Source of the DNA: a bacterium
Lineage (GTDB): Bacteria > UBA8248
Reading direction: 5' to 3'
DNA length: 64,000 bases
Assembly: GCA_965219955.1 (NCBI GenBank)
Contig: OZ244799.1
Span: forward strand, 4,000,001-4,064,000
Of the stretch, positions 6,275 through 64,000 are shown in pieces. Position numbers and translations under genes: made by a program. The notes below the pieces were generated by a model. That model ran no database searches. It was not told where the DNA came from and worked only from the letters and a program-made list of their open reading frames with translations. Within the stretch, counting starts at the first letter, position 1; each line of letters opens with the position of its first letter.

Positions 6275-6487
6275 GGGGTTGTTGAAAAAGCCCTCCTCTC
6301 TCAGAAATGACGAACAAAACCACACCGCCTCATCCTGAGTAGCGGCGAAGCCGCGTATCGAAGGATGCCCTCTCGCCACGGCGCGAGTTCCTCGCCCTTC
6401 GATACGCCGCCTTCGGCGGCTACTCAGGGTGAGGAAAGAAGCGTCGGCGGTTTTCAGGGGACGCCTATGGGCTTTTTCAACAACCCC
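6275..6487. mobile_element. MITE-like element with terminal inverted repeats, carrying a GIY-YIG-type repeat doublet
   Basis: Ends GGGGTTGTTGAAAAAG ... CTTTTTCAACAACCCC; flanked by TTGTC at 6270-6274 and 6488-6492; internal doublet at 6329-6433. Confidence 0.75.
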
Positions 6488-7929: not shown

Positions 7930-8414
7930 AAGGACTGTTGAAAAAGCCCCCCTTTTCAGGGGATAGAGGGGACGCCGCCGTAGGGACAGGTCGCGACCTG
8001 TCCCTACAAGAAGCGGTGTGGTTTTGTTCGTCATTCCGGCGAAAGCCGGAATCCATTTTGACTTTTCACCGAGCAGGGCGGCCAAGACCTTGTTGTTGCC
8101 CGGCGTCCGGATGCGGAATGCAGAGAATCCGCCTTTCGTTTTTGTATTCGATTCCGGTCCTCCCCACCGGAGTGTAAAAATGTCCAAGCGAGGAGGTAAA
8201 AAGGCAAAGGCGGAAATGGATTCCGGCTTTCGCCGGAATGACGGGTGTTGTGATCTCTCCGGAAGGGTGTCGTAGGGGCGCTTCGTGAAGCGCCCGTTTC
8301 TCCGGCAAGGGCCGTTCGCGAACGTGGGCGGTTCGCGAACCGCCCCTACGGACCCCCTATCCCTCCTTGTCAGGGTGGGTGCTTTTCAAGTCAAGGGAGC
8401 GGTCAACAACCTCG
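7930..8414. repeat. Intergenic repeat mosaic between convergent genes
   Basis: Perfect 28-bp palindrome GTAGGGACAGGTCGCGACCTGTCCCTAC (7980-8007); inverted pair CGTCATTCCGGCGAAAGCCGGAATCCA (8029-8055 and 8217-8243); GTAG doublet at 8272-8349. Confidence 0.85.
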
Positions 8415-56085: not shown

Positions 56086-56184
56086 CTCATCCCGAGCAGG
56101 CGCGCTTGCGCGCCGTATCGAGGGAGTCGCATCAAAACCCGAGAAGCGCCCTTCGATACGCCGCTTCGCGGCTACTCAGGGTGA
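56086..56184. repeat. Gene-less inverted doublet of the GIY-YIG-flanking repeat
   Basis: 56086-56125 matches the reverse complement of 63961-64000 at 37/40; 56149-56184 is the inverted partner. Confidence 0.85.
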
Positions 56185-56216
56185 AGAGGGACTGTTCCGA
56201 GGGATGCCGCGCCGTA

Positions 56217-57591: not shown

Positions 57592-58020
57592 GTAGCGGGC
57601 CGTTTTCGTGAACGGCCCCCACGATAACGCGATTCTTGCGTAGGGACAGGCCTCCGTGCCTGTCCGAGGCCCGTTTTGCAAAGGACAACCACGGAGGGTT
57701 GTCCCTACAAAACCATCGCGTCCACGCGCGCCTGCTCGGGATGAGGGATCGTCGCGCCCGAATCCGGAACGGATGAGGCGGATATATATGGCGGTATCCG
57801 TATCTTCCCCGGTCGGGAGAGAGTGCGGCCGTCCGAAAGGCCAAAGGCAAAGGCGTAAAAATGGATTCCGTCGAATCCTCCCGCATTGGTCGGCTCCGAC
57901 ACCGGAATGACGGGGGGTGCGGTTTTCGTAGGGGCGGACCTGTGTGTCCGCCCTGTGTGTTCTCCCGTTTTTCCGTGTTCTCGCCTGAGCGATTGGGCGG
58001 ACACGCAGGTCCGCCCCTAC
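57592..58020. repeat. Intra-operon repeat mosaic (GTAG doublets 57640-57708 and 57928-58020; partial GIY-type repeat 57726-57745; CGTC variant 57862-57912)
   Basis: Direct matches to the repeat families found elsewhere in the window. Confidence 0.8.
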
Positions 58021-60559: not shown

Positions 60560-61834
60560 CTACTTCAGAACCGCGTTGATCTGCTTGCAGGCGTCCCCCA
60601 TGGCCTGCTTCGCGCTCTTCTTCTTCTGCAGGTAGTTGATGACCTCCTTCGAGGTGACGTCGCTTATCTCGGACGCGCGCGGATGCTGCGCCGCGCCGCT
60701 GCCCCGGCTGATGGCGGTCAGCCACGCCTTCGCCACCGGGAACTTCTTGAGATATTCCGCGTTGTTGTAGACCGAACTGCGGACGGGACCGTTCGCCCAG
60801 TTGAGGGCGCCCCGGAGCTGGTTCTTCTTGTTGGAGAGCGCCATCATGAGCTCCCACGCCGCCGCCTTGTTCTTGCTCTTCTTGTCCATGACGAGGTGCC
60901 AGCCGCCGTTCAGCGTGGCGCCCCGGTTCTTGCCGTCCAGCGTGGGGACGAGGAAGTAGCCCAGCTTGTCGGCCGTCTTGGATTTCTTGGGGTTGGTCAT
61001 CAGGCCCCAGTAGGGGGAGAAGTAGACCCCCATCGCGGCGCGGCCCTGCATCATGGCGTTCCGGTATTCGTCGCGGCCCCAGGCCAGCATGTCGGGCGGG
61101 GACCAGCCGCTGCGGAAGGGCTTGCCGAAGACCTCGAGCAGCTTGATCGAATCGGCGCGGTCGAGCAGGCAGGTCTTGTTGTCGGCGGAGAGTACGCCGT
61201 GGCCCGAGCTGTGGAGATAGCGCAGAAAGTCCTGCTCCACGTGGACGCCCGGTTTTCCGCGCTGCACGACGCCGTAGACCTTGCCGGGCTGGTTCAGCTT
61301 CTCGGCCGCTGCGAGGAACTCGTCCCAGGTCTTGGGAATCGCGACCTTGGCCGCCGCGAAGAGGTCCTTGCGGTAGTAGACGATGCCCGTTCCCGTCCGG
61401 TAGGGAACGCCGTAGGCGGGGCCTTTCGGCTTGGGAAAGCGGGTCGTGCCCGAGAGGGCGGGGATGAGGTCCCCGTAGTCGTAACCCTTGGGCGCGTTCT
61501 TGATGTAGTTGTCCAGCGGTTCGAGGAAGCCGATGGTCTCGGGGTTGACCCAAGCGTCCACCCAGGACACCACGTCGAACTGCCCGCCCCCGGCCGCGAA
61601 GGAGAGCACCGCCTTGTCCTTGATCTTCCCGTAGGGGGTGGTCACCACGGTCACCTTGATGCCCTTTTCCTTCTCGAGGTCTGCCACCACGCCCTTGGGA
61701 CCCCCCGCCGCCTTGAACAGGGTCGGGTGGATGAGGAGGGTGACATTCTTGGCCGCCGCTGCGGGCAGCGCGAGCCCCGCCACAAAGGCGGCCACGGCGA
61801 TAATGCTGAATAGCCAGCGTCCGGTACGTTTCAT
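60560..61834 (-). CDS. Carbohydrate ABC transporter substrate-binding protein
   Basis: Signal peptide, FDVV, YYRKDLF, PKTWDE, GGW.L; AGGAG RBS. Confidence 0.92.
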   Translation of the reverse strand: MKRTGRWLFSIIAVAAFVAGLALPAAAAKNVTLLIHPTLFKAAGGPKGVVADLEKEKGIKVTVVTTPYGKIKDKAVLSFAAGGGQFDVVSWVDAWVNPETIGFLEPLDNYIKNAPKGYDYGDLIPALSGTTRFPKPKGPAYGVPYRTGTGIVYYRKDLFAAAKVAIPKTWDEFLAAAEKLNQPGKVYGVVQRGKPGVHVEQDFLRYLHSSGHGVLSADNKTCLLDRADSIKLLEVFGKPFRSGWSPPDMLAWGRDEYRNAMMQGRAAMGVYFSPYWGLMTNPKKSKTADKLGYFLVPTLDGKNRGATLNGGWHLVMDKKSKNKAAAWELMMALSNKKNQLRGALNWANGPVRSSVYNNAEYLKKFPVAKAWLTAISRGSGAAQHPRASEISDVTSKEVINYLQKKKSAKQAMGDACKQINAVLK

Positions 61835-61886
61835 CGTTTCTCCTCCTTTTTCTGGGTGATCGGATGATGCGTATTCAAAAGAGCGG

Positions 61887-63272
61887 TCACACGACCGCTC
61901 CGTCCTGACGAAGTTTTTCCCTGAGCGGCTCGACCGGCAACTCGCGCGGGGTCGTCCTGCGCTCCACGCACATGGCCGCCGCCGTGCCCGCCGCCTGCCC
62001 GATGGTCATGATGTGGGCCTGGTTGCGCACGGAGCCGTTCGCGAAGCGGTCGCTCGAGACGGGCCGGCCCGCCACGAGGCAGTTCTCGATTTTCTGCGGG
62101 AGCATGACGCCGTAGGGAATGCCGTAGGCCTCCCCGTCCCTGACGTGCTTGTGCTCGATGACGCCGGTGGGCTGGTGGACGTCCAGGCAGTAGGCCCCCT
62201 GGCCGATGTCGCGCGGACCCTTGCGCGCATCGATGCAGTCCTCGTCCGTGAGGGTCTCCTCCCCGATGATGCGGCGCGTCTCGCGCACCCCGATGGCCGA
62301 GGCCGAGTCGATCACGTAGCACTCCTCGAAGCCGGGGGCGTATTTGCGGTAGAAATCGCGCACCTTGAATATCTGCTCGCGGCCCTCGATGGCGACCTGG
62401 TTCAGATCGTCGTTGTCGACGCCGCTGTAGCCGAGCATGCTCGTCGAGTTGATGGTGACGACCCCGGGCGTGGTGGTGACGGAGAACACCACGCGCTGGC
62501 GGTTCGGGTGGAACTCGCCGCGCGACTGGGCGAGCTTGACCGACTCGTAATAGCCGGTCACGAGGGGGTAGTCCTTGTGCGTGCGCAGCCCTGCGGCTAT
62601 CTCCTCGCGGGACTTGCCGATGTAGGGGTCCTCGCCGAGCATGAAGTTGGTCGGGTTCTCCTTCACGTGCCGGAGGTGGCGGTCCAGGTCCACGTTCCCC
62701 ATGCGCGAGAAGAGGCTGATGGACATCATCTTCCCCTCCGTATCACCGAGGTGGAAGGGCGCGCCCGCCTGTGCGGCGATGTCGGCGTCCCCGCTCGCGT
62801 CGATGACGACCTTCGCGCGTATCTCGCTCTCCCCGCTCTTGTTCACGATGCGCGCGCCGGCCACCCGGTCGCCGTCCATAATTGGCCCGATGGTGTAGGT
62901 GTTCAGCACCAGGTCCACGCCCGCCTCCAGGCAGAGCTTCTGGTTCACGAGCTTGAGCACCTCGCCGTCCTGGGGCGTCACGGAGTAGGAGTTGCCGTAG
63001 GCGTTGTGGAGGTGGCCCTCGGGAAAGGCGCCGCCCAGTTTGATGAGCTCGTCCACGATCTCCTGGGGGATGCCGTTGCAGATCTGCTCCCCCTTCATGT
63101 TGTGGAAGGTGAGGAAGTTGCCGAGAAGGCCCGCTGTCGCGTTGCCCCCCAGGAAGGCGTAGCGGTCCGTGAGGACCGTCCGCGCGCCGCCCCGCGCCGC
63201 GGCGATGGCGGCGCACACACCGGCCATGCCCGCTCCGACTACGAGAACGTCGACGTTGCTCCTGTCCGCCAT
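61887..63272 (-). CDS. FAD-dependent oxidoreductase (FAD_oxidored family)
   Basis: DVLVVGAGMAG, IDASGDAD, GVRETRRI.G, IPYG, VAGR, GQAAGTAAA. Confidence 0.92.
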   Translation of the reverse strand: MADRSNVDVLVVGAGMAGVCAAIAAARGGARTVLTDRYAFLGGNATAGLLGNFLTFHNMKGEQICNGIPQEIVDELIKLGGAFPEGHLHNAYGNSYSVTPQDGEVLKLVNQKLCLEAGVDLVLNTYTIGPIMDGDRVAGARIVNKSGESEIRAKVVIDASGDADIAAQAGAPFHLGDTEGKMMSISLFSRMGNVDLDRHLRHVKENPTNFMLGEDPYIGKSREEIAAGLRTHKDYPLVTGYYESVKLAQSRGEFHPNRQRVVFSVTTTPGVVTINSTSMLGYSGVDNDDLNQVAIEGREQIFKVRDFYRKYAPGFEECYVIDSASAIGVRETRRIIGEETLTDEDCIDARKGPRDIGQGAYCLDVHQPTGVIEHKHVRDGEAYGIPYGVMLPQKIENCLVAGRPVSSDRFANGSVRNQAHIMTIGQAAGTAAAMCVERRTTPRELPVEPLREKLRQDGAVV

Positions 63273-63378: not shown

Positions 63379-63444
63379 GTAGGGACAACCCTCCGTGGTT
63401 GTCCTTTGTCAGAACGTCGGACAGGCACGGAGGCCTGTCCCTAC
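63379..63444. repeat. GTAG REP doublet
   Basis: Arms match those at 3986-4058. Confidence 0.85.
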
Positions 63445-63571
63445 AAAAACCGCCCTCTCCCCGGTCGGGTTTCAATATCACTCCCCCCTTGAGGGTCGAT
63501 TCCGACCGAAGAGGGGTTTTTCTGTAATCGAGCCTCCCCGTCTCCCTAACCCTGGGTAGTCCCATATCGAC

Positions 63572-63610
63572 CTCACCCTGAGTAGCCGCCGAAGGCGGCG
63601 TATCGAAGGG
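63572..63610 (+). repeat. Left flank repeat of the GIY-YIG gene
   Basis: CTCACCCTGAGTAGCCGCCGAAGGCGGCGTATCGAAGGG is the exact reverse complement of 6395-6433. Confidence 0.9.
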
Positions 63611-63640
63611 CGGCCCCGAACCCATCGAAAGAAGCGCCCC

Positions 63641-63931
63641 TCACCCTTTTCGTTTGAAATCCTTCTTCGCCGCCCGCTTCAACCGCTCCCAGTCGCCGTC
63701 GATCAGGGCGAGTTTCTTCCGGCGCGACCACCCCTTGATTCGCCGTTCCGCCTCTATGGCCGCCTCGGCGCTGTGAAACTCCTGATGCCAGGCAAGTTCG
63801 ACCGGCCTTCGCGTGGCCGTATAACCACCAAGTGCGCCGCTGTTGTGATCGCCGACGCGCTCTTCAAGTGGCCGCCGGGTAACGCCGGTATAGAAACTGC
63901 CGTCCGCGCAACGCAACATGTAGACGAACAT
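63641..63931 (-). CDS. Small GIY-YIG nuclease (UPF0213/YhbQ-like)
   Basis: FVYMLRCADGSFYTGVT, R..DH, YT..RRPV, A...E..IKGWSRRKK. Confidence 0.92.
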   Translation of the reverse strand: MFVYMLRCADGSFYTGVTRRPLEERVGDHNSGALGGYTATRRPVELAWHQEFHSAEAAIEAERRIKGWSRRKKLALIDGDWERLKRAAKKDFKRKG

Positions 63932-63960
63932 CGTCGGCTCGCGTGGTGACACGCCTCCCG

Positions 63961-64000
63961 TCCTTCGATACGGCGCGCAAGCGCGCCTACTCAGGATGAG
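63961..64000 (-). repeat. Right (inverted) flank repeat of the GIY-YIG gene; reaches the window edge
   Basis: TCCTTCGATACGGCGCGCAAGCGCGCCTACTCAGGATGAG is inverted relative to 63572-63610, with a different internal hairpin. Confidence 0.88.

Follow-up and report, generated by a model that had tools for sequence, protein, structure and literature searches.

RAYT (TnpA-REP) is an HUH enzyme of the Y1 type; GIY-YIG domains are hydrolytic and are not known to have a strand-transfer step or a covalent intermediate. A layout in which a small GIY-YIG gene is bracketed by hairpins, NTS-ssnA-NTS, has been described for the Ssn nucleases (cd10448; Chenal et al., 2025, PMC11893778). According to the text of that paper, four Ssn proteins each cleave single-stranded DNA (ssDNA) immediately 5' of the hairpin that belongs to them, leaving double-stranded DNA and RNA uncut, and SsnA lowers transformation in Neisseria, the only role shown in vivo being a reduced integration of NTS-bearing DNA. 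Its Discussion likens the layout to IS200/IS605 and RAYT, and the enzymes, tiny sequence-specific ssDNA cutters, have been proposed as tools. The CGTC/CCTC-tagged REPs, as described in the text of Di Nocera et al. (2013; PMC3733652), lack a dedicated transposase and have stems of 8-9 bp with loops of 4-5 nt, odd loops being allowed in some species; that text contains no mention of a GIY nuclease.

Here we analyse a 64,000-nt stretch of a bacterial contig (OZ244799.1, positions 4,000,001 to 4,064,000; the window), which holds a comparable locus at its end. The relevant features are:

~63571-63611, plus strand: downstream arm, CCTC-tagged, with GAG, the inner hairpin and TCGA lying between the two halves of the outer stem; its head faces away from the gene
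63641-63931, minus strand: GIY-YIG gene, solo domain, 96 aa from the ATG (ORF call and Pfam; ORF at 63644-63931)
~63960-64000, minus strand: upstream arm of the same family with another inner hairpin, its first base one position beyond the window edge
6329-6433: gene-less head-out doublet, spacer 31 bp, predicted to fold into a single long hairpin (z -7.2)
6275-6487: IS1182-type shell around the previous doublet; its inverted ends, 6275-6289 and 6473-6487, correspond to those of the 1512-bp IS1182 copies
56086-56185: gene-less head-out doublet, spacer 25 bp (z -4.7), with a compensated C:G outer stem in one arm
57726-57745, minus strand: half arm, 5' part only (sequence match)

A GIY-YIG gene between head-out arms

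The arms of the locus lie 31 nt from the stop codon and 30 nt from the ATG. A reading of the window made previously from the letters alone (the sequence-only reading) had placed the 96-aa ORF between inverted repeats, and arms do bracket it at ~63572-63609 (+) and 63962-64000 (-); the gene-less doublets at 6329-6433 and 56086-56185 and the fragment at 57726, reported in the same reading, are also all present, with doublet arms identical to those of the gene at 40/40 and 37/40 positions. The 14-mer core of the arm is matched 8 times in the window, compared to 0.46 expected. Counted over the whole source genome (G000: 4.28 Mb, one contig, 94% complete), as had been suggested, the family comprises 333 arms, where one Markov genome of order 4 has 0, and 136 head-out doublets (gap ≤120) against 7 in the opposite orientation. 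Another 19 pairs of neighbouring arms are 120-1600 bp apart, three of them head-out: one encloses the GIY-YIG gene (352 bp), one a 430-bp gap with no ORF longer than 41 aa and one a 1536-bp gap with a 274-aa gene. Only the GIY-YIG gene of the window is tightly enclosed by a head-out pair in G000, and the possibility that the repeat encloses random genes just as often is not borne out, as other genes are almost never enclosed.

The earlier description of the locus as REP/RAYT-like with a different enzyme stands as far as the layout is concerned, which is real, but the layout is not new in kind, since it has been published for Ssn, including the RAYT analogy. RAYT/REPIN systems are similar in having a single arm-flanked gene, many dispersed gene-less doublets and a repeat load that tracks the gene, and differ in the enzyme, which is here GIY-YIG and not HUH. 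Searches of G000 (94% complete) with the PF01797 and NF047646 profiles found no RAYT, and RAYT was rejected on this basis as the partner enzyme of the repeat.

The spacer that holds the locus also contains GTAG-type and other repeats, with an IS1182 end recognisable solely on the upstream side of the gene. A GTAG-type REP doublet is found at 63379-63444, one of many in a genome with ~670 such arms; the abundance of these repeats with no RAYT found indicates that repeats persist without a resident enzyme. The genes at 60560-63272, for an FAD-dependent oxidoreductase and a sugar-type solute-binding protein, are ordinary, and their order is kept in 5/5 relatives.

An arm with an interrupted stem

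Each arm runs from a CCTC tag into one half of an outer stem of 4-5 bp, then through GAG, the variable inner hairpin and TCGA to the other half of that stem. The bases of the tag and the first stem base (C, C, T, C, A) are present in 312-333 of the 333 arms; over the whole arm family the GAG that faces TCGA is invariant and the tags are CCTC, TGTC or GTTC, with CCTCA or TGTCA the commonest among 201 gene-flanking arms. The inner part, with at least 4 stacked pairs in 312/333 arms, comes in 56 variants of 11-22 nt. Its variability had been noted before together with a fixed sequence of the flanks; the 56 variants agree with the former, but the flanks are not fixed, as they pair with each other and covary. 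At one outer-stem position in G000 the pair is T:A in 287 arms, C:G in 40 and mismatched in 6 (of 333), and at a second it is T:A in 153 and C:G in 117. Across species we find TCCT/AGGA, CCCT/AGGG, TGGT/ACCA and GTTC/GAAC in a search that itself required 4 pairs, and TAG..CGTA, adjacent to the core in G000, is replaced by GAG..CGTC or CAG..CGTG in relatives. The internal GTAG was considered as a RAYT tag and rejected, because relatives have GGAG or GCAG with a compensating change. Single arms fold no better than shuffles (z -1.5 and -1.2, compared to -7.2 and -4.7 for the whole doublets), so that the outer stem of the arm rests on covariation. Tandem G-A pairs are conceivable within the core, where GAG faces CGA. 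Rfam gave 0 matches in 5 loci.

Judged by text descriptions, the arms resemble CGTC-tagged REPs (PMC3733652) in the CCTC/TGTC tag followed by A, the dominance of head-out dimers, the frequent heterodimers and the same broad phyla, and differ from them in a stem that is interrupted and bears an inner hairpin.

The nuclease and its relatives

Pfam GIY-YIG matches the 96-aa ORF with E 4e-16, and a GTG start at 63952 would extend the same ORF to 103 aa. The protein, a single-domain GIY-YIG nuclease of the ~100-aa class, is encoded by one gene copy in its genome and matched no NCBIfam name. Its conserved residues are Y4, Y14, G16, R25, H29 and E62, among which Y4, Y14 and E62 are the equivalents of the catalytic Y6, Y17 and E64 of SsnA, all kept; the three are invariant in the A1 set, and Y14 is conserved to at least 90% in the A2 set. 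The W68/R70 end is invariant in the group of the window protein (the window group) and peculiar to it. The AlphaFold model (pLDDT 93.5) has its best fold matches in the UPF0213 structures 1ZG2 and 1YWL, followed by the structure-specific Slx1. UPF0213/YhbQ (E. coli b3155) is the best match in both sequence and fold, with E 1.6e-10 to 1ZG2 compared to 1.5e-3 for the Ssn protein of the same genome. YhbQ-like genes differ in that they are never flanked by the arm (0/20, compared to 121/134 in the window group), as well as at the W68/R70 end.

That Ssn protein is encoded by a canonical Ssn-type gene of 104 aa (C1:2883486, in the stretch C1:2883434-2883792; L002:1449-1810), which lies between NTS-type arms in the same orientation and shares 35% identity over 77 aa with the window protein. 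G000 has 292 NTS-type arms, and the window includes doublets of them near 8030-8242 and 50882. Each nuclease of G000 has its own repeat: there are two paralogues and two arm families. The likeness of the window system to Ssn extends to the ~95-aa single-domain GIY-YIG protein, the inverted-hairpin flanks, the catalytic residues, the hundreds of repeat copies and the one hairpin per homologue; the difference is that the window protein groups apart and resembles UPF0213.

For the tree we used 240 distinct small GIY-YIG proteins from fetched loci, with 139 rows in the window group, 134 of them with full flanks. The ML tree (98 columns, Neisseria SsnA absent) contains the Ssn rows as a 99/100 branch without the window group; IQ-TREE joins the two at 84/84, with 69/27 for the window group itself. 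FastTree makes the window group a sister to YhbQ (0.71) and IQ-TREE does not. AU tests reject none of the placements (window protein with Ssn, p 0.10; with YhbQ, p 0.18; whole group with YhbQ, p 0.47). A search with a nuclease profile gave 102 clusters at E≤1e-30, rising to 7170 at 1e-10; this profile cannot split the window group from Ssn/YhbQ. By its sequence and layout the system appears to work like Ssn/SRM, and the protein is at most a candidate member of the Ssn family. In the text of most supplements of PMC11893778 the terms cd10456, UPF0213 and CTGAG were not found. In the open-access text searched, no publication was found that pairs these proteins with this kind of arm; the figures of PMC11893778 and PMC3733652 may also bear on this.

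The arm accompanies the gene across phyla

We collected the best 80 GTDB loci (50-79% identity, 76 with full flanks, two of the 80 repeating loci already in the genus set), which by their titles come from Alpha-, Beta- and Gammaproteobacteria, Flavobacteriia, Dehalococcoidia, Nitrospirae and Desulfurivibrio. Head-out arms are found on both sides in 47/76 and on at least one side in 70/76, compared to 0/1086 and 53/1086 in control windows of the same size shifted by 1.2-2.4 kb. In the window group of the tree an arm is present on both sides in 75/134 loci and on any side in 121/134, and the loci from beyond the top-80 list behave similarly (29/61 and 54/61). The clade is thus consistently flanked across phyla, a point that the sequence-only reading had wanted checked, and orthologues devoid of flanks did not turn out to be the rule. 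The association of this UPF0213-like group of small GIY-YIG proteins with one hairpin family, in the arrangement arm-gene-arm, extends little to other groups, where the arm occurs on any side of Ssn-like genes in 3/71 loci, of YhbQ-like genes in 0/20 and of a fourth group in 0/9. Ssn-like loci have inverted flanking repeats of other types in 50/71 cases.

The window arm departs from the Ssn hairpin in its interrupted stem, GAG/TCGA core and variable inner hairpin, and the published SRM pattern matches 0/333 arms of G000 and 0/134 window-group loci, compared to 18/71 Ssn loci and 296 matches in G000 found by the same script. As a side observation, with inverted repeats at 50/71 Ssn-like loci (for example L013, L185-L213, L233 and L263) and the SRM pattern at 18, the pattern undercounts within the Ssn group. 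Two GIY-YIG genes of the fourth group (L024 and L235) are bracketed by another short palindrome.

The arm subtype is identical on both sides of the gene in 68/72 loci and follows the protein tree, as a tracking of nuclease by repeat sequence would have it: it changes 22 times on the tree, compared to 66.8 times after shuffling (minimum 59 of 300), a contrast that kinship inflates. The closest proteins outside the genus (70-77%) come from Alphaproteobacteria MAGs and share the TAG..CGTA subtype, the class of the window organism comprising some 30 genomes; such near relatives with a shared arm subtype suggest that gene and arms may have been transferred together. Metagenome loci selected by the arm (n=80, one arm variant) contain 32 doublets and 1 wide pair, with no gene family enclosed; no GIY-YIG gene lies within 1.5 kb of these 80 loci, which is uninformative, as only ~0.5 would be expected from 2 gene-flanking arms per 333.

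Repeat load follows the gene

Gene-less doublets accumulate where the gene is present, in line with the suggestion that repeat abundance should track the nuclease. In the genus (23 genomes), arm matches are most numerous in the three genomes whose gene is intact (260, 174 and 140). A genome with a stop-codon copy has 70 matches and two with 5'-truncated copies have 14 and 5, while the genomes with no gene match to the window query comprise eleven with 4-108 matches and six with none; six gene-less relatives, as judged with the window query, carry 44-108 matches. In the order that holds Rhizobium (120 genomes, centre left out) at least 20 matches are found in 9/10 carriers compared to 5/110 other genomes (Fisher p 2e-9, with kin that are not independent). 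In Flavobacteriaceae (100 genomes) at least 5 matches occur in 14/37 carriers and 5/63 non-carriers, counted with the pattern of one arm variant.

Movement and decay of the cassette

The cassette changes position and host. The window site is present in 5/5 relatives (93-96% identical DNA) with neither gene nor arm. At a second site the cassette is complete in G014, carries a stop codon in G013 and is deleted at the 5' side of the gene in G004 and G006, while G000 has just one arm there; with the third genomic context of the gene in G017, this makes three different gene sites within one genus. Beyond the genus, 78 loci fall into 47 neighbour groups and 13 Rhizobium-like loci into 7. Differences between the window and G014 genes fall at third positions in 32/59 cases. 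In strains from two further studies (public runs) the gene is kept at the window site. The contigs of 4 of 23 public runs, one possibly from the source sample, contain no excision joint or empty allele; the gene-skipping joints in those runs have short sides (≤34) and carry the spacers of other doublets, and so give no evidence of excision. In two RNA runs 4-6% of the sequence words were present.

Empty sites were sought across 15 relatives for 4 spacers, and in 4-6 loci each for 5 of the 6 sites without shells that were looked up. Turnover is fast in every compared spacer and most were replaced wholesale by other mosaics. The search for empty sites advised earlier was rewarded at the window site, free of gene and arms in 5/5 relatives, but a doublet alone gave a clean filled/empty pair in just 1 of the 9 doublet-bearing spacers compared. 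This is the shell-free doublet at C1:43160, absent in G011 and G016, where the insert extends 17 and 7 nt past the arms and there is a 6-8-bp direct repeat; this one case fits cut-and-repair at microhomology. No fixed target duplication was found at doublets in the compared spacers.

IS1182 shells

G000 contains four 1512-bp copies of IS1182 (C1:50839, 298860, 411122 and 3010188; family name from the G013 copy, NF033551). Each sits centrally in a C-run/G-run palindrome, which is itself a dispersed repeat. There are also ~324 gene-less shells with IS1182 ends, 311 of which hold at least one of five palindromic repeat families. Arm doublets lie within such shells in 67/136 cases, compared to 60/5000 random positions, as do 53/117 NTS-type and 77/216 GTAG-type doublets; for 22/136 arm doublets (11 under looser criteria) the nearest 350 bp contain no end of a shell. 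At one target site that is empty in 11 relatives, shells with differing cargo are present in 5 genomes, with the window-family doublet only in G000, so that cargo differs between species at an orthologous site. These two facts, half of the doublets in shells and different cargo at one site, point to the DDE transposase as a second route for doublet spread. IS1182 and its MITEs enclose half of the G000 doublets, carry every repeat family alike and have no link to the gene across phyla. The alternative raised at the outset, that a RAYT is the gene consistently tied to the repeat, finds no support in G000, where the profiles found none.

Proposed mechanism and alternatives

Our preferred explanation of the locus, with a probability of roughly 0.6, is that a second GIY-YIG lineage has a nuclease/hairpin pair of its own, similar to Ssn. 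By analogy to SsnA, the protein would bind the tag and the hairpin base in DNA that is single-stranded during replication, transcription or uptake, and would cut a few bases 5' of the hairpin, one strand at each end. That the window protein recognises and cuts its own arm in ssDNA is in our opinion quite probable. In the weakest step, host recombination would mend the cut end, using either microhomology or another repeat. In doing so it could copy arms and doublets, and occasionally the gene as well, to new positions that lie mostly in existing repeat mosaics, and IS1182 shells may then carry doublets further. Whether the nuclease itself multiplies the doublets is more doubtful: it may well do so, although we would put this somewhat short of even. 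In the fullest form of the idea, this lineage would drive the replication of a hairpin family found across bacteria, cutting ssDNA at its own arms and leaving host repair to copy doublets and cassette; we regard this as possible but less likely than not. The proposal that the element pair is spread by the nuclease is upheld in that the gene relocates and the load tracks it, but not for the spread itself, with 67/136 doublets in IS1182 shells. The latter, the repeat-rich relatives lacking the gene and the lack of any excision seen all argue against nuclease-driven spread.

An alternative is a host-kept enzyme of ssDNA restriction or hairpin processing, which would cut the hairpin while IS1182 shells and gene conversion spread the repeats, repeat-rich genomes being the ones that need the gene. 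It has the merit that lowering integration of NTS-bearing DNA is the only in vivo role demonstrated for SsnA (text of PMC11893778), and is consistent with the single gene copy per genome, its unchanged site in strains of 2 further studies, the half of doublets held in shells and the site that is empty in 11 relatives and shell-filled in 5 genomes; the correlation of gene and load fits either direction. We nevertheless consider it rather unlikely, as it leaves unexplained two head-out arms ~30 nt from the gene in many phyla, and the repeated relocation, decay and fusion of the gene; the 22/136 doublets (11 by looser criteria) with no shell end within 350 bp also speak against it.

Two other readings fare worse. 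The gene could simply be carried along, as a repair nuclease of UPF0213 type that came to lie in a spacer rich in repeats, is moved by other elements and does not recognise its arms, as might be expected from the GTAG-type and other repeats in the spacer, the fast turnover of all compared spacers, and UPF0213 and the structure-specific Slx1 being the closest solved structures. We consider this very unlikely, as two paralogues in one genome are each bracketed by a different repeat family, YhbQ-type genes are flanked in 0/20 cases and control windows in 0/1086, and enclosure of another gene is very rare, with 1 wide pair among the 80 metagenome loci selected by the repeat. Very unlikely, too, is a diverged member of the published Ssn family whose arm would be a form of SRM that the search pattern overlooks. 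The 35% identity over 77 aa to the same-genome Ssn, the ML union at 84/84, the AU value of p 0.10 and the tag-plus-A start shared with CGTC repeats all speak for it, but the Ssn rows form their 99/100 branch without the window group, SRM is found in 0/134 loci, 1ZG2 is matched far better by the window protein (1.6e-10) than by Ssn (1.5e-3), and union of the window group with YhbQ is equally unrejected (p 0.47).

Significance

An Ssn-like pair in this second lineage would carry the Ssn principle over to another widespread set of proteins. With an inner hairpin in the putative target that can vary freely, the window group is an obvious candidate for an ssDNA cutter that is orthogonal and guide-extendable. 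Such a pair also offers a candidate explanation for the spread of CGTC-type repeats, a question still open. G000, with both nuclease/repeat pairs and ~300 arms of each, provides matched controls for cross-specificity and mobilisation, and labels such as 'UPF0213 repair nuclease' also cover mobile, repeat-linked genes. If the lineage did drive the replication of the hairpin family, the system would be a replicator of the REPIN kind, powered by a hydrolytic nuclease that has no strand-transfer chemistry, and the nuclease would be, with Ssn, the missing mobiliser of CGTC-type REPs, and the housekeeping YhbQ/UPF0213 would be the ancestor or a domesticated offshoot of the window group.

Read-through fusions of the nuclease domain

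The nuclease domain is fused in frame to four unrelated neighbours in different hosts, namely SpoU, FGGY, JAB and MarR proteins. At the fusion loci (L036, L041 and L042; L055, L061 and L086; L066; L111) the frame reads through an arm, the partners being MarR, a SpoU methylase, an FGGY kinase and JAB. Judging from these reading frames, read-through may be a route by which the element adds its nuclease domain to host proteins. At L177 (G080:C1:653017), and also in G081 and G138, the nuclease domain starts ORFs of 417-448 aa, the remainder of which has no Pfam match at L177.
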